Source: a virus. From it: a stretch of DNA of 64,000 nucleotides. Below, piece after piece: positions 11,112-61,283 of the stretch. The stretch lies in IMG/VR virus record IMGVR_UViG_3300028883_000004, positions 1 through 64,000 of that record; one strand, given 5' to 3'. Numbering within the stretch: the first letter of the stretch is position 1; each line of letters starts with the position of its first letter. Both the position numbers and the translations under genes were made by a program. A model generated the notes under the pieces. That model did no database searches. It saw only the letters and a program-made list of their open reading frames with translations, and was not told where the DNA came from.

Positions 11112-11123
11112 GACAATCAATCC

Positions 11124-11153: not shown

Positions 11154-11189
11154 ATAAGAATGAAACGAAATCTGAAGGAGGATAAGAGA

Positions 11190-11510: not shown

Positions 11511-11525
11511 AGGAGCTGTAGCGTA

Positions 11526-13447: not shown

Positions 13448-13461
13448 GAGGAAAGTGGAAA

Positions 13462-14415: not shown

Positions 14416-14448
14416 GAGAGAATCGCCCAGAATCCCGCTATTCAGCGG

Positions 14449-14470
14449 CATAGAGCGGCGATAGAGCGGC
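14449..14470 (+). promoter_or_regulatory. tandem CATAGAGCGGCGA / GATAGAGCGGC motif in an intergenic region
   Basis: Two overlapping direct copies. The 13-mer recurs in inverted orientation at 61303-61315, in another intergenic region. Confidence 0.25.
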
Positions 14471-14542
14471 TTTCTAGGGCAGAGTAGGGGAAAGAGACCC
14501 CGGAACCATACAAACCGCTTAGAACGGCGGAGAGGAGGTCAA

Positions 14543-43145: not shown

Positions 43146-43161
43146 GTCGACGAAGGTTCTC

Positions 43162-44460: not shown

Positions 44461-44474
44461 GAGGCTAGAGCTTT

Positions 44475-45506: not shown

Positions 45507-45509
45507 AAC

Positions 45510-46103: not shown

Positions 46104-46651
46104 TTCATGTAATAGAAGGTCCAGACAAGTCTGGTAAGAGTTCATTTGCGAAAGCCTGGAGTCAGATGAAAGGGCTCCCTCTTATCCCTCATGAGGGGAT
46201 GGAGGACATCAAAGACGGTTTAACCGATGGAGAGGTCTACTACACGACGAAGCGTAGAGACCTCGACATGTTTAGAATGGCAGAGGCTGGATTTGACTTC
46301 GTTGTAGATAGAGGGTTCGTTACAGTAATAACTTACGGCTGGGCGTTCCATCGTTCTCGTTACAATCTTGCCTATGCAAACGAACTCCTAAAAGAGCTTC
46401 ACAAGAGAGGGCTCCTGGCCCTCTATCGGATGAATACACCTCTTGAAACCGTTCTCCGCCGTTTTAAGCGCGAGGAGGAGCATTGGGAGGGTAAGGAGAC
46501 CTGTAAGCGGATATATGCCGCCTACGAGCTATTCTGGAAGGAATACGGGGCGAATCTGGACCCTTTCCTGGTTACAGGGGAGATAATCGGCGAAAAGAAG
46601 GCATGGAAGGTGGAGAGACGTGGTCAAACGGAGAGTTGTCAAGAAGTCTGA
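46100..46651 (+). CDS. tmk: thymidylate kinase-like dNMP kinase
   Basis: MIHVIEGPDKSGKSS matches the IEG.D.sGKsT P-loop of Tmk. ATGA-coupled start with GGAGGAAG upstream. Confidence 0.6.
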   Translation: MIHVIEGPDKSGKSSFAKAWSQMKGLPLIPHEGMEDIKDGLTDGEVYYTTKRRDLDMFRMAEAGFDFVVDRGFVTVITYGWAFHRSRYNLAYANELLKELHKRGLLALYRMNTPLETVLRRFKREEEHWEGKETCKRIYAAYELFWKEYGANLDPFLVTGEIIGEKKAWKVERRGQTESCQEV

Positions 46652-49589
46652 AGAGACCAAGAAGAAAGTCAGACGAGTCGTAAAGAAGGCTAATGGGGAG
46701 ACTCCAGTCAGAGATGATGCTGCGCATCTCCACAGGGTAGGTGGTGCTGCCTTCGATATGACGATGGGTACGGACGTAGGAGATAAGAGGAACATCGTTC
46801 ATGATGTAGATAGAGAGTTTGTCTCCTTTGATCCTACCGGGGTCACGAAGCCTTGGAACCCGGACAGAAGATACCTAGACGCCTGGTCGGTTAACAATAA
46901 AATATTTCTGCTGTACCGGAACCCAGAGACCGGAAGGAAGGAAGTCGAAGAGGTCCCGTACAGATACTACATTTTCGTATTGACAAAGGATGTTGAAAAG
47001 AGAGAGTTCAAACGAGTAATGGCCAAATGGAGAGGGCGTCGAATCGTAACATCAATCGAGCCCGATCCTAACTTCCCAGAGAAGTGGCATCGCATTTACA
47101 TAGACCTTTCCAAAGAGCGAGTCCCTTATTGCGACTTAACGGCTGCAAACCATCATCGTCAGAATCGAATGAAGTACACTCGCAACTCCCCTGCTCTGGA
47201 GATAGAGCGGGAACTCAGGAGACAGGCGAACGTAACTCTCTACGAGGCTGACCTTGAACCTCCAAAGCGATTCGTAAGCGAATGGGATATGGAGTTCGAA
47301 GAAGATTTGTGGTTGTTCTACTTCGACATTGAAACGGACGATCGTTTCTCAGACCTTTTTACGAACCCAGGGAAACATAGGATCGTGTCCTTCGCATGGA
47401 AGGCTTGGAACGGAAAGAAGGCCATCTGGGAGGACGGGTTTGAGATTCTCGACATCCCGAGACTTCCTCCTGCTGATACAAAACGATGGAGAGATAGAAC
47501 AGCAGAGGAGAAAGAGGAGTGCAAGGCGGCTGATCAGGCGGAGATAAAACTGCTGAAGCGTCTGAAGTTCCTAATGGAGAAGTATGACCAAACCGTAACT
47601 TGGAATGGATACAACTTCGACCTTCCTCAGGTTCTGGAGAGGATGAAGCGATTTGGAATCTCCATCAGATGGACGCATTTTTCACAAGCGGATCTGCTCA
47701 ACGTTTTTAAGCGCTATCACATGAGAGCAGGTTCTCAGGCTACATCCTACGCCTTGCAGAGTATCGGCGAGAAGGTTCTGAACAAAGGGAAGGTCCCACT
47801 CGACGGTCGTAAGATTCACGAGCTATTCGAGCACGATAGGGAGACGTTAAGGGTCTACAACATTCGAGACGTCGACTTGATTTACGAACTTGAGGAGTTT
47901 ACGGCTTACCTCTCCCTGGATAATACCTTCAAGAGAATCGGAAACTGCTGGCCCAGAGACTTCCACATCTCGACGAAGATCGACGGCCTGCTTCTGAAAA
48001 AAGGATTCAGGGAAGGCGTTCACTTCAAGACTCGAAACAGATGGGCCGATAAAGACGAGTCGGAGAAGATCACAGGAGCCTTCGTCCTTGATCCTACAAC
48101 CGGAATGCATGAGGACGTATGCAACTTCGACTTCAAGTCGCTTTATCCTTCCATGATGATTACCTTTAACATCTCGCCAGAAACTCTTGTGGCTAGGAAC
48201 AAGGGAGAGATGGAGCGACTTGTAGAGGCTGGAACTGTATCATGGGACGACGTCATCTTAGTACCAGGTAAGGGTACATATTATTGGAAGCCTGAAATTC
48301 GAAAGGGATACATCCCGCAGATGTTTGAGTACACTCTTTTGAGACGCAAGAAGTACACAAACCTTCAGGCTGAGGAGAAGGTTGGTTCGGATAAGTTCCT
48401 TTTGTACTATCGCCTTGCCTACGGTTACAAACGACTTGGTCTCTCCTTCTACGGTGAACTTGCAAACCCGCAGTCTCGCTTTTATGATCCTGATGTTGGA
48501 GAGAGCGTCACCCGCTCTGGACAATACTTCACAAAGATGACAATGGCAATAGCCAGAGAGAAGTTCGGCTACGAACCTGTATACGGAGACACGGACTCTC
48601 TTTTCATTAAGATTCCACTTGATAAGATTCCTGAATTTATGGACCATGTCCATGATGTATACAGAGAGGATGTTGCAAACTGTAATGCCGATCCTGAGAA
48701 GATGACAATCGAGCTCGAATACGAGGATTACTTTTCGAGACTCCTCATGGTTCGTAAGAAGCGCTACGCAGGTATTATGTCAATCCATAAAGGACAAGCG
48801 TCTGACTTTATCGAAATCAAAGGACTGGAAATCATGCGATCTGATGTTATCCAGCCTGCTAGAGACCTTCAGCGAGAGGTGTGCACCAAATGCCTTCGCG
48901 ATAAGGATGCAACAGCCGAGGACCTTCTTGAGATTGTTCTTGCAATGAAGAGAAAGGTTTACAATCTAGGGTTAGACGAGGACTCTGTCATTCAGTCAAA
49001 GGGACTTCAGAAGGACATAAAAGACTACGCGGCGAAGTCTCCCCATGTTAAGGTCGCCCAGTGGATTCTGGATAACGGTTATGAATACTTCGTAGGCATG
49101 AAGGTCCCGTTCGTAATGATTAAACCAGAGAAGGCTCCAAAGAGCTTCTGGGAGGAGAAGGAGGATGTTGAGACTGGCGAGATGATTCTTGCTCCTCCAG
49201 AGGTTAAAGGACAGTTTGCCATCTACGCCGGAATATGGAAACCCGAGATGGAATACGACCAAGACTTCTACTGGGATCATCTCGTTTATCCGGCGACGCT
49301 AAGAGTTCTTGAGAAGGCATTTCCAGAACACGACTGGATTCAGTACAAAGCTGATGAGCAGGCCCGTAGACAGCGAAAGGTTGACATCCTTCTTCGTAAA
49401 CTGGGTAGACTCAAAAAGAGAGAACGTGCAAAGGCAGCTATTGATAAGTTTGTGGAGAGCATCGCCTCATTAAAAAAGAACCCATGGAGCCTTAACGAAC
49501 AGCAAAAGACAACCATCCGCAGAGCCTACGCCCTGGTGGCAAAGCGCGAGGATGCAGGACCTAAGAAGTTGAAGAAGAAAGTCAGATGA
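46620..49589 (+). CDS. polB: family B DNA polymerase
   Basis: Exo I FYFDIETDD, Exo II WNGYNFDLPQV, Exo III YNIRDVDLIYEL, motif A DFKSLYPSMMITFNISPET, motif B KRLGLSFYGELA, motif C VYGDTDSLFI. GTG start after GGAG. N-terminal MVKRRVVKK...VRRVVKK. Confidence 0.9.
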   Translation: MVKRRVVKKSEETKKKVRRVVKKANGETPVRDDAAHLHRVGGAAFDMTMGTDVGDKRNIVHDVDREFVSFDPTGVTKPWNPDRRYLDAWSVNNKIFLLYRNPETGRKEVEEVPYRYYIFVLTKDVEKREFKRVMAKWRGRRIVTSIEPDPNFPEKWHRIYIDLSKERVPYCDLTAANHHRQNRMKYTRNSPALEIERELRRQANVTLYEADLEPPKRFVSEWDMEFEEDLWLFYFDIETDDRFSDLFTNPGKHRIVSFAWKAWNGKKAIWEDGFEILDIPRLPPADTKRWRDRTAEEKEECKAADQAEIKLLKRLKFLMEKYDQTVTWNGYNFDLPQVLERMKRFGISIRWTHFSQADLLNVFKRYHMRAGSQATSYALQSIGEKVLNKGKVPLDGRKIHELFEHDRETLRVYNIRDVDLIYELEEFTAYLSLDNTFKRIGNCWPRDFHISTKIDGLLLKKGFREGVHFKTRNRWADKDESEKITGAFVLDPTTGMHEDVCNFDFKSLYPSMMITFNISPETLVARNKGEMERLVEAGTVSWDDVILVPGKGTYYWKPEIRKGYIPQMFEYTLLRRKKYTNLQAEEKVGSDKFLLYYRLAYGYKRLGLSFYGELANPQSRFYDPDVGESVTRSGQYFTKMTMAIAREKFGYEPVYGDTDSLFIKIPLDKIPEFMDHVHDVYREDVANCNADPEKMTIELEYEDYFSRLLMVRKKRYAGIMSIHKGQASDFIEIKGLEIMRSDVIQPARDLQREVCTKCLRDKDATAEDLLEIVLAMKRKVYNLGLDEDSVIQSKGLQKDIKDYAAKSPHVKVAQWILDNGYEYFVGMKVPFVMIKPEKAPKSFWEEKEDVETGEMILAPPEVKGQFAIYAGIWKPEMEYDQDFYWDHLVYPATLRVLEKAFPEHDWIQYKADEQARRQRKVDILLRKLGRLKKRERAKAAIDKFVESIASLKKNPWSLNEQQKTTIRRAYALVAKREDAGPKKLKKKVR

Positions 49590-49626
49590 GCTTTTATTCC
49601 TAAAGGAACAAAGAGAGGAGAGAACG

Positions 49627-50214
49627 ATGGCGGAGAAACGGAGGGTCGTAAAGAAGAAAACGACCACTGCAGGAAAGAGGAAAGTCACCAATAGAAAGGC
49701 GGACTCCGGAAGGGCACCTACGGGAGCTTCACAAGAGTTCCCTGTGTTCGAGATCATCGACCAGGAGATGGCCTACGTTGGCGACAACTTTGCAAACATG
49801 TACGACAAACTGAAGGAGGCGTTACAACTCGACGAAAAGAGAGCAAACCTTGACGAAATCCAATCCGCTCTGGATACAGTCGAGGGATACGGTCTTGAGG
49901 CCGGTTATCTGTGGGCGGTAGCCAATAGGGAGTACGAGTCGTTCAAGCTTCATTATGACGCTACGATGCTTGACCTTTCTCTGGAGGCACAAGAGGCACT
50001 CGGTGAGATGAAGAAGGCAGGACAAATCTCCGGTCAGGTTACGATCGCGATGCAAGAGGCCTGGCTTTCGAAGAACTCCGAGACGTACCAGGAACTCAGA
50101 ACACAGAAGATCAACCTTCGCAATCAGCGAGAGGTCCTTGCAATCTTCAAGAACCAGTGGCAGTCTCGACAGGCAACCCTTCGCGCCATGAAGGATATAC
50201 TTCGGGACCGATAA
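49627..50214 (+). CDS. hypothetical protein with N-terminal KRRVVKK tag (195 aa)
   Basis: SD GAGAGGAGAG. MAEKRRVVKKK... then a helical domain. Lies between the polymerase and SSB genes, so a recombination mediator role is possible by position only. Confidence 0.55.
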   Translation: MAEKRRVVKKKTTTAGKRKVTNRKADSGRAPTGASQEFPVFEIIDQEMAYVGDNFANMYDKLKEALQLDEKRANLDEIQSALDTVEGYGLEAGYLWAVANREYESFKLHYDATMLDLSLEAQEALGEMKKAGQISGQVTIAMQEAWLSKNSETYQELRTQKINLRNQREVLAIFKNQWQSRQATLRAMKDILRDR

Positions 50215-50227
50215 GGAGGAACCACAA

Positions 50228-51361
50228 ATGGCACGTAACGAACTTACTCTTGACGAGTTCTTTGATGACGTCGAATCTCGGGGTCGCGGGGACATCGTCG
50301 ACTGGCGGGAGGAAGGAAAGACAACGGGAGCCTTCCACCCCGAATTGCGCATCTTCTACAAGCGCAAGAAACACTTTGTACCGGTCGTTGGAGACGACGG
50401 CAAGATTGCGGTCAAGGTGTTCAACTGCCCGAATGTCGAGAAGGACGATGACCTCTGTCCGATTTGCAGAGCGCGACAGGCCCTTCGAGACGACGACACC
50501 ATCGATAATGACGAGATCGTTTTCATCGCCGGCGACGGCCGCTACAAGGATGAGCGGTGCAAGGGCGAGGTGATCAACGTAAAGGGTTATGACTGGCAGA
50601 AGAACCTCGGATGGAAAACCGAGTATCTGGTCGCCTGGGTCGAACCCGGTCAGGAAAACGACACGGCTGGAATCTGCCCCATGCCTCTGGACTGTGCCAA
50701 GAAGCTCAAGAAGGAAATCAAAGGGCGGATCGAGGAACTCGGGGACAAGGGAAACCCCTTCGACTATCCCTGCTGCTTCCGCCTGGAATACGACAAGAAG
50801 GCCGCTCCTTCGCAGAAGTACAGTGCCTCCGTCTCCTCGGTCGAGGTCGATGAAGAGATGCTTGCAATCATGGAGAATGATCCTCCGAACATCGAGGGTC
50901 TGGTCGCTCCCTCTGATCCGTACGAAGTCTACGAGGCGGTGATTGACTCCTTCGTGGTTGACTTCGGAGACCTCTTCGCCGATTTTGAGGACGGAAGCGT
51001 CGCTCCGAAATCGGAGGAGAAAGAGGAGAAGGCGGAACCGGAGAAGAAGGAGAAGCGGAAAGTCGGAGGCAAGAAGGAAACGAAGAAGGCTCCGGCAAAG
51101 AAGGCTGCTCCCAAGACTCGTAAGACTCGTACGACGAAGAAGAAAGAGGAGCCCGAACCTGAACCTGAGAAGAAGGCCCCGAAGCGTCGAGTTGCGAAGA
51201 AGAAAGAGGAGCCCAAACCGGAACCCGAACCCACCGAAGAGGAGGCTGGTGAGAGCCCGTGCCCGGAATGCGGTGAGATGGCTCCCGACGACGCTACCAA
51301 CTGTCCGCACTGCGGAGCGGAGTTCGAGTACATCGAGGACGAGGACCCCTTCGCCGAGTAG
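50228..51361 (+). CDS. gp32-type single-stranded DNA-binding protein with basic linker, C-terminal Zn ribbon and acidic tip
   Basis: C67-x9-C77-x2-C80 (FNCPNVEKDDDLCPIC) has the same Cys spacing as the T4 gp32 zinc site. C-terminus CPECGEMAPDDATNCPHCGAEFEYIEDEDPFAE. SD AAGGAGGAAC. Confidence 0.65.
   Translation: MARNELTLDEFFDDVESRGRGDIVDWREEGKTTGAFHPELRIFYKRKKHFVPVVGDDGKIAVKVFNCPNVEKDDDLCPICRARQALRDDDTIDNDEIVFIAGDGRYKDERCKGEVINVKGYDWQKNLGWKTEYLVAWVEPGQENDTAGICPMPLDCAKKLKKEIKGRIEELGDKGNPFDYPCCFRLEYDKKAAPSQKYSASVSSVEVDEEMLAIMENDPPNIEGLVAPSDPYEVYEAVIDSFVVDFGDLFADFEDGSVAPKSEEKEEKAEPEKKEKRKVGGKKETKKAPAKKAAPKTRKTRTTKKKEEPEPEPEKKAPKRRVAKKKEEPKPEPEPTEEEAGESPCPECGEMAPDDATNCPHCGAEFEYIEDEDPFAE
51005..51232 (+). 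repeat. low-complexity K/E/P-rich coding region of the SSB linker
   Basis: KSEEKEEKAEPEKKEKRKVGGKKETKKAPAKKAAPKTRKTRTTKKKEEPEPEPEKKAPKRRVAKKKEEPKPEPEP. Causes several shadow ORFs. Confidence 0.8.
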
Positions 51362-51396
51362 AATAAGCGCAAAGAAGATCACGAAAGGTATCTAGC

Positions 51397-51786
51397 ATGA
51401 AAACTCGTAAAGAGCAGGTGAAAGCGACCATCGGAAAGCTCAAGATGAAAGTCAGTCAAGGTGTTGTTGAGATGGTCATCGCTCGTTACCTGGAGTCGGT
51501 TTTCGATGCGCTTGCAGATGGTTACTCCGTGAATCTGTACCGGATCGGCAGGCTTGAGGTGATAGTCAAGCCTGCCGGTCAATTCTATTCTGGACTTTGC
51601 AAAAGATACATGCACAGCAATCCTCGAATCAGAATCAGGTTCATACCGGCAAGAGGCCTCAACGAAATCCTAGATAAGAAGATGAATGAGGGACAATTCC
51701 ATGGCAGACTCGACAAAAGCGGGAACCTCAAAAAAGAAAAGAAGGGTCGTAAAAAAGGAAGCCGAAAAAAAGGCTCCGCCCGTTAA
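51397..51786 (+). CDS. HU/IHF-family DNA-binding protein with basic C-terminal tail
   Basis: VVEMVIARYLESVFDALADGYSVNLYRIGRLEVIVKPAG...NPRIRIRFIPARGLNEIL fits the HU fold pattern (G.f.v..r.ar...NP.t...i.f.p...l). Confidence 0.7.
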   Translation: MKTRKEQVKATIGKLKMKVSQGVVEMVIARYLESVFDALADGYSVNLYRIGRLEVIVKPAGQFYSGLCKRYMHSNPRIRIRFIPARGLNEILDKKMNEGQFHGRLDKSGNLKKEKKGRKKGSRKKGSAR

Positions 51787-52885
51787 ACCTTATCGACCCA
51801 CTGCTCCTGGTTCTGGAAAGCTCATAGACGAGATGAAGGCGGTCACTCAAGACCTTGTGCGGGTTACTCCGCTGAACAAGGTTCCGCCGACTGTGGTTGT
51901 GCCTACCTTCTTTGCTGGATTCAATAGAGCGACGAGAGTAGGCGGAGCCCCGAGTCGGCGGATTATGATTATTCATGGACCGTCTGGAGAGGGGAAGTCT
52001 GTCTTTGCAGCCGGCCTTCTTACCTCTGCGGCAATCTACGGGCACATCCCGCTTTATGTAGACGCTGAGCATGCCACCGACCCAGATTGGTGGATGAAGC
52101 TAAACGTTCCAAACTGGCTTCCGTTCTACAGACCGGAGACATACGAGGAGGCTTACGCGAATATAAACAAGGCCATCATGAACTTCAAGAAAGGGAAGGC
52201 GGCTGGAACGATAGACAAGAACAGACACCTCGTTATTGTCATCGATACCATCAACAAACTCGCTCCGAAAGAGGAGATAGAGAAGTTCGGGAAAGAAACG
52301 ATCAAGCGCGGCTATCCACTGAGGGCGATGTACAACAACAGATGGTTAGACGTACTGACTCCAATCTGCGGAGTCAACGACATCCTCTTCGTGGTTATAG
52401 CCCAGGAGAGAAGGGATGCCACCGTCGAGGACGGACAATACGTTAAAGAGTACACGAAATGGAAAACCAAGGGAGGAACAGGATTGAAGTACGACTCCTC
52501 TCTGGTGGTTAGGATAACGGAGTCGACTGCTCTCAAGGAGGATATAGGCGGACAGAAGATAGAAGTTGGCTCTGGGCATAAAGGGTTCGTCATTAAGAAC
52601 AAAGTCGGATTCTGTCATGAAGGCTTCACCTTCTACACTATCTCTGTAGACGGGGGAGAGAACCCAGTCGGATTTGACTACGCAAGGGAACTTGCAGACG
52701 AATGCAAGCACATGGGTCTGATAGTTAAAGAAGGCCAGAACTTCAGACTCGACGACGATGGAGAGCTGAGAGCGGAGAAGGGACTGAAGGCCATACGAAT
52801 GGCCCTTAGAAACGATGAAAGCTTGGCGAAGCGAATGCTGGAGAGACTTCGCCAAATGACCCTGGAAGGAAAGTTGCCAGAATGA
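51701..52885 (+). CDS. recA: RecA/UvsX-family recombinase
   Basis: Walker A IIHGPSGEGKSVF. LYVDAEHATDPDWWMKLNV (compare RecA fIDAEHAlDp.ya.klGV). VIVIDTINKLAPKEEIE (compare vVDSVaaL.PkaEieG). N-terminal ...KKKRRVVKK. Alternative start at 51686. Confidence 0.8.
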   Translation: MADSTKAGTSKKKRRVVKKEAEKKAPPVKPYRPTAPGSGKLIDEMKAVTQDLVRVTPLNKVPPTVVVPTFFAGFNRATRVGGAPSRRIMIIHGPSGEGKSVFAAGLLTSAAIYGHIPLYVDAEHATDPDWWMKLNVPNWLPFYRPETYEEAYANINKAIMNFKKGKAAGTIDKNRHLVIVIDTINKLAPKEEIEKFGKETIKRGYPLRAMYNNRWLDVLTPICGVNDILFVVIAQERRDATVEDGQYVKEYTKWKTKGGTGLKYDSSLVVRITESTALKEDIGGQKIEVGSGHKGFVIKNKVGFCHEGFTFYTISVDGGENPVGFDYARELADECKHMGLIVKEGQNFRLDDDGELRAEKGLKAIRMALRNDESLAKRMLERLRQMTLEGKLPE

Positions 52886-53133
52886 ACGAGAGTCAAATCC
52901 ACGGGATGAATAAAGTCATCCTGCACGCCAGCTTAGATAAGGCGACGGCAAAGAAGGTGGAGAGCATTGTCAAAACTCTCGTGGACGACAACCTGAAGGG
53001 GAAGGCGTCTCAGGTTCAGGCCGGCTCTATCACCCTACGAGTTATTGCATTGGTGGAAAAGACAACAGACCTTCTTACAAAGCCTCTCTCTTCATGGGAG
53101 GAGAAAATGATCGCAAAGGTCTTGGAGGTCTAA
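52882..53133 (+). CDS. hypothetical protein (83 aa)
   Basis: ATGA-coupled to recA-like and TAATG-coupled to sbcD-like. No motif. Confidence 0.5.
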   Translation: MNESQIHGMNKVILHASLDKATAKKVESIVKTLVDDNLKGKASQVQAGSITLRVIALVEKTTDLLTKPLSSWEEKMIAKVLEV

Positions 53134-53939
53134 TGAGATTTGCAGTAAAGGGAGATAGTCACCTCGGGAAGTCTATGGGGATGTTCTCCAGGACAGAGGA
53201 GATTCGTCGAGTATATAACGCAATCATCGATCGCTGCATCAAAGAGGAGGTCTCCGCTCTTGTAGACCTTGGCGACATCTTCGATGGAAACAGACCAAGC
53301 TCAGACCTCATCTCCATGTTTCTAAGATGGGTCACGAGGTTGACGGAAGCAGGGATCGATTACATAGTCACGGAAGGGAATCACGAGAAGGTTCATCAAC
53401 CAGGAAGGCGGTCGGCACTTGAGGTCCTGGAGGCTGCAAACTTTGATCCTGAGAAAGTCCACGTCTCGTCCTGGCCTGAAGTCTTTTCTATCAGACAGAG
53501 TGCACTCTGCATTCTTGTTCCGTGGGTTACACGAATAGAAGTCAAGACGAGAGAGGGAGCCTTCGAACATAAGAGTATGAGCGATTGGCTCGACGGAGTT
53601 CTAAACGAAAAGCAAATGCTTGGAAGTCTCCGCGGCTGCGACCTTCAGGAGAGGTTTCAACCAATCTACCTTTTTGGTCATGTCAACCTAAAGGGCGCGA
53701 CAGTTGGAAAGAACATCCCGTACGAGCCAGACGATTACGTTCTACCCGATTGGGTTCTAGGCGATGAGTCGCCTCTCGACGGAATCATAGTCGGTCATAT
53801 ACACAAGACTCAAATCATCCAGAGGGAGCCGGTGCCTACAATGGTTCTAGGGACTCCTCACTTCAACGACTTCGGAGAGATAGGGCACGACAAAGGATTC
53901 GTCATTATAGACACCTCCAGGGCAAGGAGGAAATCGTAA
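53133..53939 (+). CDS. sbcD: Mre11/SbcD-family nuclease (phosphoesterase core only, 268 aa)
   Basis: Motifs VKGDSHLG, DLGDIFDG, TEGNHE, GHVN, VGHIH. Start 53133 has GGAGG upstream. Confidence 0.75.
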   Translation: MRFAVKGDSHLGKSMGMFSRTEEIRRVYNAIIDRCIKEEVSALVDLGDIFDGNRPSSDLISMFLRWVTRLTEAGIDYIVTEGNHEKVHQPGRRSALEVLEAANFDPEKVHVSSWPEVFSIRQSALCILVPWVTRIEVKTREGAFEHKSMSDWLDGVLNEKQMLGSLRGCDLQERFQPIYLFGHVNLKGATVGKNIPYEPDDYVLPDWVLGDESPLDGIIVGHIHKTQIIQREPVPTMVLGTPHFNDFGEIGHDKGFVIIDTSRARRKS

Positions 53940-54385
53940 TGGTGAAGCGTCGTGTAGTGAAGAAGGGAACAGGGAAACCAAAGTCACTCTTTCCTGGTTT
54001 TCAGTTTATTCCTACGAATCCGACTCCTCTGATAAAACTGCAGGGAGACCTTCGCGAAGAGAGTCTTGAAAAGATGATAGCTAGATTCGCGAAGGAGACT
54101 CCGAGAGGAGCTATCGTCAGCATTGAGGTGAAGGTAGACGAAGAGACTCTGCCGGACCTCAAAGCCCAGGAGATAATGGAGGCCCTTCCGCAAGCGAGTT
54201 TCGTTAGACAGGTGAAGCCTGTTATTGTGAAGGGGAAAGCTCTTCGCATAGAAGGGCAGGACCCAGCACTCGGGGAAAAGGAAGCAGTCAAGAACTTCGT
54301 AAAGGAGACAAAGCCTCCTAGAGCAAAGACGGTTCTCAAGATAGCTTACGACCTTCTGGAGAGAGGAGGTCGTGATGCAGGTTGA
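53939..54385 (+). CDS. hypothetical protein with N-terminal KRRVVKK tag (148 aa), between sbcD-like and sbcC-like
   Basis: TAATG coupling, SD AAGGAGGAA. MVKRRVVKKGTGKPKSLFPGFQF... Could be a detached SbcD C-terminal/capping region. Confidence 0.55.
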   Translation: MVKRRVVKKGTGKPKSLFPGFQFIPTNPTPLIKLQGDLREESLEKMIARFAKETPRGAIVSIEVKVDEETLPDLKAQEIMEALPQASFVRQVKPVIVKGKALRIEGQDPALGEKEAVKNFVKETKPPRAKTVLKIAYDLLERGGRDAG

Positions 54386-56420
54386 TGCAATAGTTGTTTG
54401 TAACTTCGGACCCTTCAGAGGAGAGCATCGAGTTGACTTTCGAGGAAGGAAAACAATCGGAGTTGCAGGGCGACACGTTCTAAACAAAGAGAAGTCGAAT
54501 CGCGTAGGCAAATCCTTCCTTCTGGAATCTATCCGCTACGCTCTGTACGGTAAGCATCGAATGAGGACAGAGACAGAGCTGATCACCAATGGTGAAAAAC
54601 ATATGTGGGTTCGGTACGAGGGAACACTCTCGAACGGAAAGGATTTTACGGTCGAGAGAGGAAGGAACGCCGATGGAAAGGGTTATCTTGAAGTCAGTGA
54701 CTTTGAAGGGGCAGGACAGAAGAAGGGGCAAGAGGCTCTTGACATCCTTCTTGCGATAGACGATAAGGACTTCGATTCGATTTTCTTCTGCAGGCCTGAT
54801 GAACTTCATTCCTTCATGGAAGCCGGACCGACAGAGCAGTCTCGCAAGATGAGGTCGTGGGCAGGGATAGACAGATGGAAAGTTTATGAGGATGCAGCGG
54901 CGGAGCTTTTAGCCGTAGCCGAAAAGGAACTGCTTGAGACCTACGATGATATAGACGGACTCGAAGAACAGCTGGAGGACGCGGACCAACTCCAGGAAGC
55001 TCTCACAGGCGCGAAGGCTCAACTGGAGACTGCATCCGCCAGACAGAAGAAGGCGAGCGTGCAACTGGAGAAGGTCCGCAACCTCCTCTCGAAGTTAGAC
55101 GATCGCTCCTCTCTGGAATCTAACCTGGAGACCATTACAGACGCTTTGGAAACTCTCCTGGAGAAGGAGAACACCTACACCTCTGCGAAGGCTCAAAAGA
55201 AGAAAGACGAGGCGCGACTGAAGAAGGTCAAGGCAGGTCTCGTCGACTTGGAGACTTTTGAGAAGGAGAAGGAGGAAGCACAGCAGGAAGTCTGGAGACT
55301 GGAGACCTCCCTGCAGACCTGGGCGGAAGCCGGGGAGAGGGGCGGGGTTTGCCCGATTTTAAGCGAAAAATGCGATAGGATAGGCAAGGAGACCGTAGAG
55401 GAGCAGAAAAAGGAGGCTAGAGACGCCCTAAAAGCCGCTAGAACGGCGTTAGAGGCGGTGAAAAGGAAGGCAGAGGGGTTATCAGGCCTGAAGCGAGAAA
55501 AGACGCTCCTGGAGGCTAGAATCGCCCAGAATGGTAGGGTGAAGGCTCCTGACCTCTCTAAGCGAGAAGGGCTCCTTGCCAGGCAGAAGAAGATCGAAGC
55601 TGACCTGGAGGCGATAGACGAGAGCAAGCGGACTAAGTACGAGGACCTCGAAAGCAAATGTCAGAAGGCTCTTGATGCTGCAGACAAAGAGGTAAGCGAG
55701 ACCCAGGAGAGCATAGGGGCGCTCAAGGAAAGGAAAAGGAAAACAGAGGAGGCGTCTCGCAAGATAACCAAACTTGAGAAGGCGGCGGAAGGGCAGGAGA
55801 CGAAAGTCAAGGACCTCCGCTTTGTAAGATACATGTTCGGGAAAGACGGCATCCCGTCTCACGAGTTGGAATCTATGTTCGGGGAGATTGAGGAGAGGGT
55901 CAGCAGAAATCTCTCTCGCCTTGGATCCGAACTTACAGTTCACCTTTCCCCGGTTAAGGTTCTGAAGAAGATGGAACCTGTATGTCCTGCATGCGGGTAC
56001 GAGTGGGAGTCTCCTTCAAAGTCTGGGAAATGCCCGGATTGTAAAAGGGAGAGAAAGAACGCAACGAAGGACGAACTCCAATTCGAGTTCACAGAGGGAG
56101 AGAAGGTCACAAAGTTCTACGGAGACTCTGGAGGCGGCAAGGTCATCATCTCCCTGGCGGTTAGGATTGCAATTGCAGACTTGAGGGCTCGACGCTCTGG
56201 GACGACGGCGAAGTTCTTTATCCTAGATGAGCCATTCATTCATCTTGATGAAGTAAGCAGAGCGACAGTCACTTCGACCCTTCTCGGAAAGTTCAGAAGG
56301 GACATTGGAGTTGATAGGCTCTTTGTCATTTCGCATGTTCCAGAGATCAGGGATGCAGTCGAGGACATCCTTTATGTTGTAATGGATGAGAACGGAGATT
56401 CGAGGCCAGAATGGGCATAA
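54372..56420 (+). CDS. sbcC: Rad50/SbcC-family ATPase
   Basis: N-terminal Walker A region (NRVGKSFLLESIRYALYG), ~350-aa coiled coil, signature GDSGGGKVIISLAV, Walker B FFILDEPFIHLDE, and an inserted CPACGYEWESPSKSGKCPDC ribbon. Confidence 0.8.
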   Translation: MMQVDAIVVCNFGPFRGEHRVDFRGRKTIGVAGRHVLNKEKSNRVGKSFLLESIRYALYGKHRMRTETELITNGEKHMWVRYEGTLSNGKDFTVERGRNADGKGYLEVSDFEGAGQKKGQEALDILLAIDDKDFDSIFFCRPDELHSFMEAGPTEQSRKMRSWAGIDRWKVYEDAAAELLAVAEKELLETYDDIDGLEEQLEDADQLQEALTGAKAQLETASARQKKASVQLEKVRNLLSKLDDRSSLESNLETITDALETLLEKENTYTSAKAQKKKDEARLKKVKAGLVDLETFEKEKEEAQQEVWRLETSLQTWAEAGERGGVCPILSEKCDRIGKETVEEQKKEARDALKAARTALEAVKRKAEGLSGLKREKTLLEARIAQNGRVKAPDLSKREGLLARQKKIEADLEAIDESKRTKYEDLESKCQKALDAADKEVSETQESIGALKERKRKTEEASRKITKLEKAAEGQETKVKDLRFVRYMFGKDGIPSHELESMFGEIEERVSRNLSRLGSELTVHLSPVKVLKKMEPVCPACGYEWESPSKSGKCPDCKRERKNATKDELQFEFTEGEKVTKFYGDSGGGKVIISLAVRIAIADLRARRSGTTAKFFILDEPFIHLDEVSRATVTSTLLGKFRRDIGVDRLFVISHVPEIRDAVEDILYVVMDENGDSRPEWA

Positions 56421-57118
56421 GCAGGAGAGTTAAAAAGCGGAAAGGGAAAGAGCGGAGAGTGCTTGGAATCGATCAGTCGCTTGATCACTCTGCACTCGTC
56501 CTTCTAGGAAGTGGAGGAGGGAAGTCGAGAACGCTTCCAGGACATCTTCTCGACTTTAGATATTTCGTCGACACAAAGACAGACCTGAAGGCGTACAAGG
56601 AAGCTCTGATGGTTCCTGCTCCAGATGGGAAGGTCAACGACACTTATAAGCTCGAACGCCTTCTCTATCTTCGAAAGACATTCAAGCAACTTATTCTCGA
56701 ATGGCAACCTGATATTGCGGCAATGGAGGGATACGCTTACAACGCGAAGGGCTCCTCTGCAATGCAGACAGGTGAACTCGTCGGAATGCTGAGAATGCTA
56801 TTGCGAGACCTCCATGTCCCGTTCTTCATCTTTGATCCTGGTTCGATAAAACTTTACGGCGCTGGGAAGGCAGGAGCTAATAAGGTCGCTATGGTGATGT
56901 CCTGCTCTAAGCGATGGGAGAGGATAAACTTTGCGGAGTACGGAAACAACTGCGACAACATAGCAGATGCCTATATTATTGCGCAACTGTTATGGGAACT
57001 GGACTGTGTTAGAGAAGGAGACCTGACGGTCAACGATTTAAGAGTCCAGACGAAGAGGGTCTTGCAGAGAACTACAAAGCCGTACCCGGAATCACTCATA
57101 ACAGTGGAGCCGCTATGA
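56411..57118 (+). CDS. ruvC: RuvC-like Holliday junction resolvase
   Basis: RRVLGIDQSLDHSALVLL (catalytic Asp), AAMEGYAY (Glu), NIADAYIIAQL (Asp). Basic N-terminus MGISRRVKKRKGK. Confidence 0.6.
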   Translation: MGISRRVKKRKGKERRVLGIDQSLDHSALVLLGSGGGKSRTLPGHLLDFRYFVDTKTDLKAYKEALMVPAPDGKVNDTYKLERLLYLRKTFKQLILEWQPDIAAMEGYAYNAKGSSAMQTGELVGMLRMLLRDLHVPFFIFDPGSIKLYGAGKAGANKVAMVMSCSKRWERINFAEYGNNCDNIADAYIIAQLLWELDCVREGDLTVNDLRVQTKRVLQRTTKPYPESLITVEPL

Positions 57119-57417
57119 CAAGAAAGCGAAAAACAAAGAAGGAGGAAGTCAAGTCGAATCCTATGTTGAAGGTTATGTTAGGACTCGACGAAGTCGTTAT
57201 CTCAAAACGACAGGTCATTATTCTAAAGGCCCTTCGGGACCTGAAGAGTTCAACGGCTGATCCGGTTGTAAGCATGACGAAAATAGACAAGAACATTGTC
57301 CAGAATGCCTTTCGCGCTCTTGCGAAGAGAGGGTACGCGAAGAAAACGATTCAGCATGGTGTTTACGGAATAACCAAACTTGGCGAACAGCTCTGCGATG
57401 CAGTGGATGGAAAGTGA
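57115..57417 (+). CDS. small winged-helix DNA-binding protein
   Basis: ISKRQVIILKALRDL...IVQNAFRALAKRGYAKK...YGITKLGEQL has a MarR/wHTH-like layout. Confidence 0.45.
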   Translation: MTRKRKTKKEEVKSNPMLKVMLGLDEVVISKRQVIILKALRDLKSSTADPVVSMTKIDKNIVQNAFRALAKRGYAKKTIQHGVYGITKLGEQLCDAVDGK

Positions 57418-57420
57418 TTT

Positions 57421-58329
57421 ATGTCTGAAGTCGAAACCATATTGTTGGATGGTTCTTTCGTGGCTCGCTACGGTTACGAAGTACATAAGGAACTCTCCTG
57501 GGAATCGGAAAGAGGGAGAGTTGAGACAGGATGCCTTTACGGTTTCCTAGACACGGCGATATCATGGCGAAGAAGATTCGGAGGAAGGATCATCGTTTGC
57601 TGGGATAGAGGCTACGGAATAAGAACAGCAATCGATCCTACCTACAAGCAGAACAGAAGGGACAATCCATGGGAGGAACGAGATCGTTATGAGGCTCAAA
57701 AGAGACTCTTGATGAAGGTCCTTCCGTACACCGGGTTCACTCAAGCCTACGCACCTGAGCACGAGGGAGACGACGTAATGGTTACCCTCAGCAAGAGACT
57801 TCCAAAACCGATAATGGTTGTCTCTTCAGACTGGGACCTCCATCAGGTTATTGCTCCAGGTGTAAAGCTCCTTCGTAAGTTCTCTTCGGGAAGGGTTAGA
57901 GAATCGATCCTCGGAATAGAGGAGCACAAAGCAAAGTGGGGATTTGGTCCAGAGCACTTTCCCTGGTTTCAATCCCTCGTTGGATGTGTAGGAGATAATG
58001 TCTCTGGTGTAAAGGGAATGGGAAAGAAACGAGCTGCAGACCTCATAGAGAATCATTCAGACGTATACGAGCAGTTTGTTCTAAACGGAAACGAAGAAGT
58101 GCTTGAGGGAAGTGGTCTCCAGAAGGTTGTAGTAAACGCTTTACGAAACGGAAGGGACGATGCGCTTCGTAGCCTCAAGCTTGTTACTATGCGAGATGAC
58201 GCACCAGTGGTCTACATTAGAAGCAGATTCAGGCCTGCTGAACTTTTAGACCTTCTTGAGTACTACGGATGTTACGATCTTACAAAAGATACGAAATTCA
58301 AATGGTTCGGGGAGAATGCAATTGACTAA
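57421..58329 (+). CDS. 5'-3' exonuclease / flap endonuclease (Pol I N-terminal / T4 RNase H family)
   Basis: ILLDGSFVARYG, IIVCWDRGYGIRTAIDPTYKQNRR, PEHEGDDVMVTL, VVSSDWDLHQV, and H3TH motif LVGCVGDNVSGVKGMGKKRAADLI. Confidence 0.8.
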   Translation: MSEVETILLDGSFVARYGYEVHKELSWESERGRVETGCLYGFLDTAISWRRRFGGRIIVCWDRGYGIRTAIDPTYKQNRRDNPWEERDRYEAQKRLLMKVLPYTGFTQAYAPEHEGDDVMVTLSKRLPKPIMVVSSDWDLHQVIAPGVKLLRKFSSGRVRESILGIEEHKAKWGFGPEHFPWFQSLVGCVGDNVSGVKGMGKKRAADLIENHSDVYEQFVLNGNEEVLEGSGLQKVVVNALRNGRDDALRSLKLVTMRDDAPVVYIRSRFRPAELLDLLEYYGCYDLTKDTKFKWFGENAID

Positions 58330-59290
58330 ACGGCGAGCAGTAAAGGCTAGAACGCGAGGACGACTAAGAGATCACGAAGTGCTCTCTACAATTCGAGACG
58401 TCCTCTCGAATACTTATCTGAAAGAGGGAAAAGACTATTTTGTTGGGGAGAACATTCCAGGGGAGAGTAGGCGCGGAGACATCTTCTTTCCGGTTCCTAG
58501 AATCGTATGCATCTTTGATCAGTTTGCAGTGGAGAGAGGATGGGACATGGAATCGAGAGGATGGAAGGTCATCACTCTCGTAGACTCTTCGGAGCGGTAC
58601 ATCAAGTCTGTCGTTTACAGAATCATCAGGAAGTTTCACAAAGACTTTAGGACCTGGAACCCGAAAGACAGATGGCAGGAGATTGTAGACGAATGGGGAG
58701 AATGCTCAGAATGCGGTCTGTGTAAGGATAGACAGAACCTCGTCCTTGGAGAGTTCTCTGAGAAGTTCGACTCGTGCGAAGTTATGATTGTAGGAGAGGG
58801 ACCCGGACCAGACGAGGATGAGCAAGGAAGGCCTTTTGTTGGGAAGTCTGGAATGGCGCTTCGCAGATGGATGAAGAAGGCAGGCATTGAGGATAACTAC
58901 TTCATCACAAATGCAGTCTGCTGCTTTCCAGGGAGAGACGAAAACCGACGAATCAAACCTCCAAGTGTAAAGCACATAAAGGCATGCCGCAATAGGCTCC
59001 TTCAAACGATAGAAGTTATGAACCCATCGGTGGTGGTCAATGTAGGCGAGATTGCTCTAAAGGCCGTTATGGGAAAGGGCATGATCAAGGAGGCGCGGGG
59101 CCTTCGACAAAAGCGGATCATCAAGCGACAGAAGAAGGGATCAAGACTGCTGTACTTCAAATCGCTTACGGTTTATCATCCTTCATACATAATCAGGCAG
59201 AGAGGGAAACGCGGAAACGACCTCATGAAGATTGCAGTCGAGGACCTTCGCAGAGCCCTTCAATATGCCAGAGGGATAGCAGACGAATGA
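58316..59290 (+). CDS. family 4 uracil-DNA glycosylase with ~120-aa N-terminal extension
   Basis: CSECGLC (Fe-S Cys), VMIVGEGPGPDEDEQGRPFVGKSGMAL, FITNAVCCFP, VYHPSYI. The N-terminus (RRGDIFFPVPRIVCIFDQ...ESRGWKVITL) is faintly Vsr/DUF559-like. ATG 58316 follows GGGGAG. Confidence 0.8.
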   Translation: MQLTKRRAVKARTRGRLRDHEVLSTIRDVLSNTYLKEGKDYFVGENIPGESRRGDIFFPVPRIVCIFDQFAVERGWDMESRGWKVITLVDSSERYIKSVVYRIIRKFHKDFRTWNPKDRWQEIVDEWGECSECGLCKDRQNLVLGEFSEKFDSCEVMIVGEGPGPDEDEQGRPFVGKSGMALRRWMKKAGIEDNYFITNAVCCFPGRDENRRIKPPSVKHIKACRNRLLQTIEVMNPSVVVNVGEIALKAVMGKGMIKEARGLRQKRIIKRQKKGSRLLYFKSLTVYHPSYIIRQRGKRGNDLMKIAVEDLRRALQYARGIADE

Positions 59291-59664
59291 AACGAGGATT
59301 CGTAGGAGGTGTAGTCTATCTTGCCCAGTGCTTTTGGGAAGGATTCTCGCAGGCGAATAAGACTACAAAGAAAGTCATGGGAAGGTTCCCAGACGGTTTC
59401 TTCTATCTCCAGCGCGGTTATGAGAAACCTCACAGGGAGGAAGGAGGCGCCTTGATTTTCCTAGACGAACAAGTTGCTCTTGCCTTCCTTGAATCTGCGC
59501 TTAGAACAGACATCGATAAGTACAAAGGCCTGAGGATAAAGAAGGCGAAGCGATACTTAGACGTCGGCGGCTTTCTCACCAGGAGTGTGAAAGACGGTGA
59601 ACTAATAGTCTCGACCCTTCTTCTGGAGTTAACGACAGGAAAGCGGGAGGTCATAAAGATATGA
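59287..59664 (+). CDS. hypothetical protein (125 aa)
   Basis: ATGA-coupled ORF. No motif. Confidence 0.5.
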   Translation: MKRGFVGGVVYLAQCFWEGFSQANKTTKKVMGRFPDGFFYLQRGYEKPHREEGGALIFLDEQVALAFLESALRTDIDKYKGLRIKKAKRYLDVGGFLTRSVKDGELIVSTLLLELTTGKREVIKI

Positions 59665-59858
59665 GCGCGCAGAGTGACTTGGATCAACTCATCCTTGTCG
59701 TGGACAAGGCCCTTGAGGAAAACAGAATATGGCCAGACAAGACTCTGCGAAGAGGAAGTTTGGCTCGAAGCATTGCGTTAAAGGTTGTAGCCGAAGGATT
59801 CAGCAAAACGCCGAAGCCTCAGGCTCGTAGAACTCGAAAGGTGAGGAAGGATGACTGA
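59661..59858 (+). CDS. hypothetical protein (65 aa)
   Basis: ATGA-coupled. Basic C-terminus. Confidence 0.45.
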   Translation: MSAQSDLDQLILVVDKALEENRIWPDKTLRRGSLARSIALKVVAEGFSKTPKPQARRTRKVRKDD

Positions 59859-60408
59859 GAAGAAGGGCGATGGAAAAGAGAATCGCGGAAAGGTCGTAGA
59901 CATCCGCCAGATGATCGGAAAGAAGTTCAACGACGAGAAGAAGGTCAAGGAAGCTCTTGATGATCCTTCGAAGGCCTTCATTATAGACAGCGAGGATGCG
60001 CTCATCACTGCCTTCTGGTCGTCCGAATGGATCAAGATTTGCAACATCGATGACGACCAGAAACGAGAGAGGATGGCAGGGAAGTTCCTGGAGAAGATGG
60101 CAAGGAACAAAGACCTGTACGGAGTGAGACTCTTCGTGCAGCATCTCCTTCAGCGCATCGAGAACCTTGAGAACCTCAACTCGCATCTCGTAGGCGAAAT
60201 GAAGATCACAAAGGACTTCGTCAATAAGCACGAGGACCTTATTACAATTCTGCAACTTCCCTTCTGGAAGCGCTGGGCGTACCTCAGGCGCTATCGCAAG
60301 GGACTCTTAACGGCGGGCAAAGGAAAGAACGTCAAGAAGAAGGAGGCAAAAGATGCCGGACAAAAGCGGGAGAACAAATCTCCTAAAGACGGCCCTGCAA
60401 AGGACTGA
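59851..60408 (+). CDS. hypothetical protein (185 aa) with Lys-rich tail
   Basis: Overlapping start. Helical. No motif. Confidence 0.5.
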   Translation: MTEKKGDGKENRGKVVDIRQMIGKKFNDEKKVKEALDDPSKAFIIDSEDALITAFWSSEWIKICNIDDDQKRERMAGKFLEKMARNKDLYGVRLFVQHLLQRIENLENLNSHLVGEMKITKDFVNKHEDLITILQLPFWKRWAYLRRYRKGLLTAGKGKNVKKKEAKDAGQKRENKSPKDGPAKD

Positions 60409-60952
60409 GAAGGCTACAGAGCATGCAGCCCTAATCAATCTGATTATCGGGCATGCTCATGCAAGTGGGATCGAGGTCGTCCTTACAGCTCCGAAAAAAG
60501 GGCTCGACTCTTACGAGAAGGACAACATTCAGAACTCGACGATCATAGAGAGTACGGATGACCCTCTCGCGATTGTCGCAAAGAACGTTGTGAACCATTT
60601 CGTGGAGGTGAAGAAAAGAGCAGACCTCCCTCCTGGGAGATTCGAGCTTGTGGCTATCACCTTTGCGACTCAGGCTTCCGGAATCTCAACGGTCGTCTAT
60701 GAGTTCGTTCCGGACTTCTACGGAATGGCAAAAGGGCTCCTTGCAAAGCATAGAGAGCACTCCGCCTCACTTCAGGATTCGATGGAGATAATCAAGAGGA
60801 AACTCCAGGAGGCTGGAGGCGACGGAGCAAAGGTCACATTTGAAGACATTTCGCATGCTCTTGATGCTATCGATGAAGTCGCGGCAGCTGGCGAGGCTTT
60901 GGTGGAAGGGGCAAGTTGGATCGACGAAGAGGAGGAAGGCAATGGCGACTAG
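60353..60952 (+). CDS. hypothetical protein (199 aa) with acidic C-terminus
   Basis: Strong SD (GAAGGAGG, 6-nt spacer). 56-nt overlap with the upstream ORF. Confidence 0.55.
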   Translation: MPDKSGRTNLLKTALQRTEKATEHAALINLIIGHAHASGIEVVLTAPKKGLDSYEKDNIQNSTIIESTDDPLAIVAKNVVNHFVEVKKRADLPPGRFELVAITFATQASGISTVVYEFVPDFYGMAKGLLAKHREHSASLQDSMEIIKRKLQEAGGDGAKVTFEDISHALDAIDEVAAAGEALVEGASWIDEEEEGNGD

Positions 60953-61283
60953 AAGGGTCGTAAAGAACAATCGCAAGCCTATCATCTCAAATCACGTCGG
61001 AATAGACTCCATGCGGTTCTCAGGATCATCGGTTGCAGACCTCAAGACTTTCCTTTCCGCTCTTCCAGGAGGAAAGGGAAACATCTATGTAGGACCTCCT
61101 CTGGTAAGAGAGGGAGTCGGTTACAATGGTGTCTTCTCGCTGAAGAGTAAAGACGACGTAGAACGTCTCAAAGCAGCCTTCTCGGAACTGGTGAAGGCAG
61201 GGAGAGTCCCGATGGTTATGGTGGCAGTCTGGGATACGGTCAGGAAGGCCGCTAAAAGGAGTCGGAGAGTTAAAAGGGGTTAG
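60942..61283 (+). CDS. hypothetical protein (113 aa) with N-terminal RRVVK tag and basic C-terminus
   Basis: MATRRVVKNNRKP... ...RKAAKRSRRVKRG. SD GAGGAGGAAGG upstream. Confidence 0.55.
   Translation: MATRRVVKNNRKPIISNHVGIDSMRFSGSSVADLKTFLSALPGGKGNIYVGPPLVREGVGYNGVFSLKSKDDVERLKAAFSELVKAGRVPMVMVAVWDTVRKAAKRSRRVKRG

Follow-up and report, generated by a model that had tools for sequence, protein, structure and literature searches.

A Basic Heptapeptide Shared by Replication and Recombination Proteins of a Metagenomic Phage Looks Like a Common Address Tag

A Short Basic Peptide Recurs in the Replication–Recombination Module

The DNA analyzed here is a 64,000-nucleotide stretch (the window, whose numbering is used unless another locus is named) of the virus record IMGVR_UViG_3300028883_000004, in which proteins encoded between 46.6 and 61 kb, among them a DNA polymerase, a RecA-like recombinase, and a predicted binding protein for single-stranded DNA (SSB), carry exact or near copies of a short basic peptide, KRRVVKK, hereafter the tag. 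The window belongs to a metagenomic contig of 95.9 kb (European Nucleotide Archive ERZ27252208, k141_2096555), and L174, assembled independently from a different sequencing run, matches this contig without a difference across a 10.8-kb overlap. The + strand carries all genes. Copies of the tag were located by a six-frame scan, except where another source is given.

The first tagged protein is a family-B DNA polymerase (PolB; 46620..49589, 989 aa, Pfam DNA_pol_B 2.4e-53), whose homologues align only from about residue 80 and whose N-terminal extension of ~75 residues bears two copies, KRRVVKK at residues 3 to 9 (46626..46646) and VRRVVKK at residues 17 to 23 (46668..46688). The gene opens with GTG and shares its first 32 nt (46620-46651) with the 3′ end of the upstream Tmk-like gene, and the first PolB copy is therefore dual-coding. 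The after-pol protein p49627 (49627..50214, 195 aa, helical) follows, with KRRVVKK at residues 4 to 10 (49636..49656). This protein has syntenic orthologues in every relative examined (BLASTP 2e-23 for L002 and 7e-16 for L006; alignment A4) and no match in Pfam, PHROG, or the PDB, the PDB profile search giving spurious helical matches only; a word-indexed search returned only the protein itself. In the RecA-like recombinase (51701..52885, 394 aa, Pfam RecA 8.3e-16), KRRVVKK occupies residues 13 to 19 (51737..51757) of an N-terminal extension of ~60 residues, and the orthologues of this protein all start with basic peptides. Between SbcD and SbcC, the open reading frame (ORF) of p53939 (53939..54385, 148 aa) encodes KRRVVKK at residues 3 to 9 (53945..53965); p53939 has no family match, and in relatives no homologue could be detected at the corresponding position. 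The last tagged protein of the window, p60942 (60942..61283, 113 aa, an ORF also present in the pipeline gene calls), has no family match and is tagged at both ends, with TRRVVKN at residues 3 to 9 (60948..60968) and the variant SRRVKRG, seen in the translation, at its extreme C terminus (61260..61280). The product of 60353-60952, which lies upstream of and overlaps p60942, has an acidic tail, WIDEEEEGNGD.

Near-variants mark three further proteins of the window. A RuvC-like resolvase (56411..57118, 235 aa, Pfam RuvC 3.9e-5) has SRRVKKR at residues 4 to 10 (56420..56440); it is orthologous to L171:9393, and the basic N termini of the two align. A family-4-type uracil-DNA glycosylase (UDG; 58316..59290, Pfam UDG 2.2e-30 over residues 154-312) has KRRAVKA at residues 5 to 11 (58328..58348) of its ~140-residue N-terminal extension. 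In the SSB, KRRVAKK occupies residues 319-325 (51182..51202) of a linker with a predicted local distance difference test score (pLDDT) below 55. Finally, a protein of 160 aa is encoded ~4 kb beyond the end of the window (L174:14466-14948, ~67.7-68.2 kb in window numbering). Located between a dCMP deaminase and an epimerase and without a family match, it ends in RKRRVAKKQGEPKKVVRRRVVKKTEDQPKKVVRRRVVKK, which contains three tandem copies, KRRVAKK, RRRVVKK, and RRRVVKK, 15-16 residues apart. The adjoining dCMP deaminase begins MTERRRKIVRPK.

The Tag Is Far More Frequent than Composition Predicts

Exact RRVVK occurs six times in the 64 kb when all six frames of both strands are scanned, and in + frames alone: at 46629 and 46671 (PolB), 49639 (p49627), 51740 (RecA-like), 53948 (p53939), and 60951 (p60942). 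Every exact copy lies at most 20 residues from its ORF start and within 46.6-61 kb, with zero elsewhere in the window. The composition predicts 0.024 copies, and within-protein shuffles (n = 1000) never yielded more than one. Counting k-mers de novo in 82 proteins from 74 kb likewise places RRVVKK at the top of all 6-mers, in five proteins versus two for the runner-up. The motif is confined to the half of the genome that encodes DNA metabolism. Terminal basic clusters, defined as at least five Lys or Arg in seven residues at most 24 residues from an end, are present in 15 of the 50 DNA-metabolism proteins and in 1 of the 28 structural and lysis proteins (Fisher P = 0.004). The tag is real and statistically robust: its exact form is on at least six proteins and, with near-variants, it is on at least nine, the SSB among them. 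A small ORF in the capsid module (3993-4283) has a basic tail, SVKRRKIGFGGKRGKMKF; the structural half has no other string resembling the tag, and this one differs from the motif.

An earlier note on this DNA, made from the sequence, had listed the exact copies on PolB (two), p49627, the RecA-like protein, p53939, and p60942, together with the variants on the RuvC-like protein, the UDG, and the SSB linker, and had seen no such motif in the structural and lysis genes; all of this was recovered in our scan. Its description of the peptide as N-terminal holds for most copies and fails for the C-terminal variant of p60942 and for the three C-terminal copies of the 160-aa protein. The tag thus occurs, alone or in tandem, at N termini, at C termini, and within a linker, and it lies outside the regions that align with orthologues or, in the SSB, in the low-pLDDT linker. 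These are the properties of a hub-binding short linear motif, which lies in disordered regions, is independent of position, and is shared across functionally linked proteins.

Conservation at the Level of the Peptide

The start codons of the tagged ORFs appear to lie upstream of the motif, as the earlier note's reading demanded: a GGAGG-like ribosome-binding site (RBS) is found 6-10 nt upstream of each, the metagenome pipeline's gene calls have the same starts, and basic N-terminal extensions are kept in orthologues (for example, the PolB P0003 starts MVKRVRKK). In PolB, p49627, and p53939, the next in-frame Met of the translation is 47-56 codons downstream.

The same note had placed conservation in the peptide and not in a shared RNA or DNA element, and the codons bear this out. 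The Arg codons of the copies alternate between CGN and AGR, and pairwise codon identity among copies is 29/75 versus 23.1 expected from the codon usage of the window (P = 0.13). Similarity does not extend past the motif codons into the RBS or the 5′ untranslated region (UTR), and Rfam has no match at the tags. Because the Arg and Val codons vary and no RNA or DNA element was found beyond the motif, it is the peptide on which selection acts. Val-Val is written GTC GTA in four of the six exact copies (46677, 49645, 51746, 60957; P ~0.008, post hoc), for which leftover common ancestry or a slight preference at the nucleotide level may be responsible, and a DNA repeat family of three copies over the tags (26 nt, 73-85% identity) is limited to the motif codons.

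The Tag in Related Phages

No INPHARED sequence exceeds 26% identity to PolB, and single-protein queries of IMG/VR found no relative. Because these queries gave no close relatives, the clade was reached with PolB and RecA-like profiles, at identities of 31-37% for PolB and 30-43% for the RecA-like protein; no relative above 37% or 43%, respectively, was found. Synteny is kept in the relatives in the order polymerase, after-pol protein, SSB, RecA-like protein, small ORF, SbcD, inserts, SbcC, and resolvase. At L167:4034-7837, a DnaE-type PolIII alpha (PHP, DNA_pol3_alpha) is in the PolB slot while the after-pol, SSB, RecA-like, and SbcCD genes are kept, and this is therefore a polymerase swap within a conserved module. 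The PolB and DnaB genes of several relatives are interrupted by inteins or homing-endonuclease domains (L006:1250-3574, 10001-14008; P0006, P0007, P0010).

The earlier note had proposed to look for the motif in related phages. The exact heptad is in none of the relatives and is specific to this genome; what is kept is a basic N terminus and, in the three nearest genomes, an R-[VI]-basic core in the equivalent places of the orthologues (KARVRKL and MARIRKL in L002; MVKRVRKK in L006; PRVKR, PRVKG, and KRVKR in L007). With the window left out, basic N termini are enriched across the clade on orthologues of the RecA-like protein (P = 3e-4) and of the after-pol protein (P = 0.0025); SbcC, SbcD, and the SSB show no such enrichment. 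A scan of ~160 distant PolB loci for an N-terminal R[VI][KRV][KR] gave background alone (~1%), and the tag is therefore not general to phages with PolB. Similarity of N termini within a genome is significant for the window alone, which has 21 pairs versus 4.9 expected (P = 5e-8). The impression, gained from the termini, that each relative has a shared tag of its own found no support in an unbiased test of within- versus between-genome similarity. Judged from these comparisons, the recombinase and the after-pol protein of this clade had a basic N-terminal peptide ancestrally, which in this genome has become one exact heptad and has spread to at least nine proteins.

The Neighboring Gene Encodes a Predicted gp32-Type SSB

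The product of 50228..51361, which the earlier note had taken for an SSB, is by structure prediction a remote gp32-type SSB, with a core at residues ~21-250, a disordered K/E/P linker at residues 260-340, a zinc ribbon, and an acidic tip. An AlphaFold2 (AF2) model from a 71-sequence alignment has a pLDDT of 81.8 overall, with the core above 90 and the linker below 55, whereas the single-sequence model reaches only 36.6. The assignment rests on the Foldseek matches of the model: the top PDB matches are the T4 and RB69 gp32 cores, 1gpc (E = 2.9e-4) and 2a1k (E = 5.5e-4), both at probability 1.00 and with target-normalized template modeling (TM) scores of 0.53 and 0.44, respectively, and the BFVD matches include annotated phage SSBs. 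The gp32 core is an OB fold with a zinc-binding subdomain. The spacing C-x9-C-P-I-C presumably also agrees with that of gp32. Searches by sequence (Pfam, PHROG, PDB profiles, and tblastn against phages) found nothing except the zinc ribbon, and hhalign of the SSB against gp32 gave a probability of 5-13%; the link to gp32 is structural only.

An exhaustive search defines a previously unannotated family of at least 115 clusters at 50% identity (P0063-P0177) with a C-terminal zinc ribbon. The C terminus of the SSB, EYIEDEDPFAE (51326..51358 in the translation), is a candidate docking site; such an acidic-aromatic tip is present in 55 of the 115 family members, many of which have exactly DDDIPF or DDDVPF, while a minority has basic C termini instead, such as PKRRRVRRSK. 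At the N terminus the SSB is acidic, MARNELTLDEFFDDVE, its basic motif sitting in the C-terminal linker instead, and an acidic-hydrophobic peptide, (L/M)(D/E)(D/E)F(L/M)xD, is conserved there across the family and reads LDEFFDD in this protein. A 34-nt direct repeat (51135-51168 and 51195-51228, 91% identity, 60 nt apart) flanks KRRVAKK and encodes KKKEEP(E/K)PEPE units on both sides of it, from which we conclude that the linker grew by internal duplication. In one relative, the SSB (L168:7208-8575) ends just past the zinc ribbon with no tip, and an 80-aa ORF downstream of it (L168:8725-8967) starts with the basic peptide MKKIIRQVKP and ends in a zinc ribbon and ...GPDELPF; this ORF could be a split SSB tail or the result of a frameshift.

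The Surrounding Genome

Tail sheath, tape measure, and baseplate wedge proteins and an endolysin are encoded in the window, which also has capsid-module ORFs at 0.5-4.3 kb, and on these grounds we assign it to a contractile-tailed phage of a bacterium. The DNA-metabolism module begins at ~33 kb with a ResIII helicase, an IstB-like loader, DnaB, a DnaG-type primase, and UvrD, and includes nucleotide genes (a dUTPase_2 fusion, ThyX, UDG, and a Tmk-like protein). It further contains PolB, the 195-aa after-pol protein, the SSB, an HU-like protein, the RecA-like protein, SbcD, the 148-aa protein, SbcC, the RuvC-like protein, a helix-turn-helix (HTH) protein, FEN, and the family-4 UDG. No family match to a sliding clamp was found among the ~50 proteins scanned, which come from 74 kb of the 95.9-kb contig. 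The dU/dT metabolism is unusually rich, with the dUTPase_2 fusion, two ThyX-type genes, a dCMP deaminase, the Tmk-like protein, and two UDG-superfamily genes (43111-46103, 58316-59290, L174:~14000-14473, and L174:17576-18292), a gene set that may point to a modified pyrimidine or to strict exclusion of uracil.

Docking on the SSB as the Favored Interpretation

KRRVVKK has the look of a shared address tag by which enzymes are brought together on one platform, and a common recruitment function is well motivated. A specific reader is favored because, unlike what generic DNA binding would give, the heptad is strict in at least six proteins despite codon divergence; each of its residues, V-V and their order included, appears to be selected. 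The SSB is the first candidate for this reader because it carries the motif itself, has an acidic-hydrophobic peptide at each end, has a precedent in gp32, and is accompanied by a tagged set that looks like an SSB interactome. Indeed, the tagged polymerase, recombinase, nuclease-associated protein, resolvase, and UDG resemble the known partners of T4 gp32 and E. coli SSB. We put first, at somewhat less than an even chance, the interpretation that the tag docks its bearers on the phage SSB, or on the SSB filament on single-stranded DNA (ssDNA); we infer both that a reader exists and which protein it is.

On this interpretation, KRRVVKK on flexible N-terminal, C-terminal, and linker segments would recruit the DNA-metabolism proteins to a single reader, the basic/aliphatic peptide binding an acidic-hydrophobic element of the SSB, which might be the tip (EDEDPF), the N-terminal LDEFFDD, or an acidic surface of the core. 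The linker copy KRRVAKK would provide SSB-SSB contacts, and tandem copies (two in PolB and three in the 160-aa protein) would add avidity. The tag would thereby let the polymerase, the RecA-like protein, the after-pol protein, the SbcCD-associated protein, the RuvC-like protein, the UDG, and small accessory proteins join or displace the SSB on ssDNA. A tentative extension, possible although we would not expect it, is that a heptad for SSB self-association was copied onto the clients as a portable address tag, so that the clients insert into or cap the SSB-ssDNA filament.

Three findings described above also speak for docking on the SSB: the acidic-aromatic tip kept in the SSB family, the confinement of the tags to the DNA-metabolism half, and the basic N termini retained by RecA-like and after-pol orthologues throughout the clade. 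A comparison within the clade is consistent with SSB docking as well. In 10 genomes, N-terminal tag regions were compared with the SSB region following the core, from the same or from other genomes, and tag regions are closer to the post-core region of their own genome (permutation P = 5e-5; 0.0013 without the window). The resemblance also holds against a composition-preserving shuffle (P = 0.003; 0.0065 without the window) and for 6- and 7-mers in a reduced alphabet (P ≤ 0.0013). Examples are L007, with APRVKK in the linker and tags PRVKR, PRVKG, and KRVKR, and L172, with GRRRKKK in the linker and tags RRKKK and GRVRK.

Several observations, however, weigh against docking on the SSB. Reduced-alphabet 5-mers give no significant resemblance between tag and linker (P = 0.08-0.13), and the matches are partly linker-style low complexity and not the motif core. 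In the relatives pooled, within-genome N-terminal similarity amounts to 13 pairs versus 14.5 expected, and coevolution of tag and partner is therefore not demonstrated. The partners of SSB tips known so far read the tip by a folded pocket and not by a seven-residue peptide. The tag also fits what we take to be the polyanion-binding pattern XBBBXXBX (Cardin-Weintraub), in which case V-V may merely space the charges, and the HU-like protein, the primase, and the HTH regulator have basic tails unlike the motif, as a generic trend toward DNA affinity would give.

Alternative Explanations

This last trend leads to the alternative that survives best, in which the tag is a generic tether to DNA as a polyanion: the basic peptide would bind double-stranded DNA (dsDNA) or ssDNA nonspecifically, in the manner of molecular sleds, NLS-like peptides, and the N-domain of the phi29 terminal protein, concentrate the enzymes on replicating phage DNA or the nucleoid, and add processivity in a phage whose scanned proteins include no recognized clamp. 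We regard this as possible, although on balance unlikely. Peptides with at least four basic residues bind dsDNA at ~200-350 nM and slide along it regardless of sequence or spacing (PMC4797294), and five of the seven tag residues are Lys or Arg. Likewise, the basic N-domain of the phi29 terminal protein brings the replication machinery to the nucleoid (PMC4974454). That relatives keep the charge of the tag and not its sequence is an electrostatic signature, tandem copies suit DNA-binding repeat tails, the different basic tails on the window's other DNA-binding proteins fit the same idea, and so does the lack of a recognizable clamp among the proteins scanned. Generic DNA binding accounts for what is seen in the relatives. 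It does not account for the conservation of every residue in this genome, because it tolerates sequence change (PMC4797294), and strict retention of all seven residues in at least six proteins despite saturated synonymous divergence is not expected of it. Moreover, DnaB, the helicase loader, UvrD, SbcC, SbcD, and FEN act on DNA yet lack the tag, and the SSB linker carries a copy although the SSB core already binds DNA.

The strict heptad implies a specific reader, which could also be a dedicated protein other than the SSB: another phage protein (the acidic-tailed product of 60353-60952 is a conceivable partner), a host hub such as a clamp, chaperone, or protease adaptor, or the scaffold of a condensate or compartment. 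The region has many small neighbors without known function, the presence of two to three copies on one protein would suit condensate scaffolding through multivalency, and RRVVK agrees at four of five positions with the clamp-binding motif APIM, which we take to be [KR]-[FYW]-[LIVA]-[LIVA]-[KR]. Nevertheless, every copy has Arg at the aromatic position of APIM, which is presumably essential, the 74 kb examined yielded no clamp gene, no candidate for such a reader was found, and the SSB's own copy of the tag would be left unexplained, all of which makes a reader of this kind rather improbable. Targeting to a replication compartment, one of the possibilities raised in the earlier note, has no support here: a shell protein was not recognized, although chimallin was not searched for specifically, and the genome is ~96 kb.

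Far less probable still is that the shared codons form a nucleic-acid element, either an mRNA operator of the kind used by T4 RegA or in gp32 autoregulation or a DNA site, with the peptide as a by-product. Most copies do lie in the first 20 codons, where translational operators act, and the 26-nt repeat family and the GTC GTA preference would fit such an element. Codon identity is not above expectation, however, Arg switches between CGN and AGR, the likeness stops at the motif codons before reaching the RBS or 5′ UTR, Rfam has no match, and copies also occur at C termini and in a linker 950 nt into its gene; the RNA-operator reading is largely refuted by these data. An export or import signal has next to no chance: although the tag's [S/T/K]-R-R-x-hydrophobic resembles what we take to be the twin-arginine translocation (Tat) motif, S/T-R-R-x-F-L-K, and KRRV and KKVVRRRVVKK would presumably fit a eukaryote-type nuclear localization signal, charged or polar sequence and no hydrophobic h-region follows every copy (SEETKKK, KTTTAGKRK, EAEKKAPP, GTGKPKS), for which reason a Tat signal peptide, with its h-region and AxA cleavage site, was rejected, the cargo consists of cytoplasmic DNA enzymes, C-terminal copies also exist, and the virus, being a contractile-tailed phage with an endolysin, has a bacterial host.

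Comparison with Known Systems

The gathering of enzymes on DNA is known mainly from T4, T7, and E. coli, where the hub carries or reads hydrophobic or acidic motifs. In the case of the E. coli SSB-Ct (DDDIPF) and the acidic tail of T7 gp2.5, the hub carries the motif and each client has its own folded pocket. Docking on the SSB would share with this tip interactome the use of an SSB as a hub, there for polymerases, recombination mediators, nucleases, and UDG, through a short terminal peptide, and the family described here often ends in DDDIPF or DDDVPF; in contrast, the polarity is reversed, since here the clients carry the common motif. Clamp-binding motifs (the PIP box, the bacterial beta-clamp motif QL[SD]LF, APIM, and the T4 gp45-binding C-terminal tails of gp43, gp33, and gp55) also direct a short terminal peptide to one hub, but they are hydrophobic or aromatic whereas the tag is basic and aliphatic. 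The RPA32C-binding motif common to UNG2, XPA, SMARCAL1, and TIPIN is partly basic and docks on a eukaryotic SSB, but it is helical, longer, and eukaryotic and has no sequence similarity to the tag.

The T4 SSB, gp32, provides a basic counterpart. Its N-terminal LAST peptide (Lys-Arg-Lys-Ser-Thr) docks on the neighboring gp32 molecule, while the acidic C-domain makes contacts with basic residues and brings in proteins of replication and recombination (PMC12424627, PMC5892887). The tag is similar to LAST in being a short basic peptide at a flexible terminus of a phage DNA-metabolism protein, and the gp32 fold of the SSB described here comes with a disordered tail and an acidic tip. However, LAST is (Lys/Arg)3(Ser/Thr)2, whereas KRRVVKK has no Ser or Thr and a Val-Val core, and LAST belongs to the basic N-terminal domain of the SSB, whereas the tag lies in the C-terminal linker of the SSB and on at least eight other proteins. 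To our knowledge, a LAST motif on many other proteins has not been reported. Molecular sleds such as adenovirus pVIc (KRRR core) keep their activity when the sequence changes, while here one exact heptad extends across many proteins, and both the sleds and the phi29 terminal protein concern one protein as opposed to a tagged set.

In line with the earlier note, no paper with the tag peptide and no comparable concept turned up in full-text searches of the literature. If the SSB-docking interpretation is correct, a basic heptad on at least nine proteins, the SSB included, would constitute a different and very simple recruitment code, a client-borne hub motif that organizes a whole phage replication-recombination factory by a logic not described for any phage. 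On the strength of the tag, p49627, p53939, p60942, and the 160-aa protein would count as candidate factors of replication or recombination, and the tag could serve as a portable tether of enzymes to ssDNA-SSB or DNA. As a separate yield, the analysis defines the gp32-fold SSB family. Collectively, these comparisons indicate that the logic of one motif directed to one hub is already known, and that what sets the tag apart is the basic/aliphatic chemistry, the polarity in which clients and SSB both carry the motif, and the breadth of its use within one phage genome.

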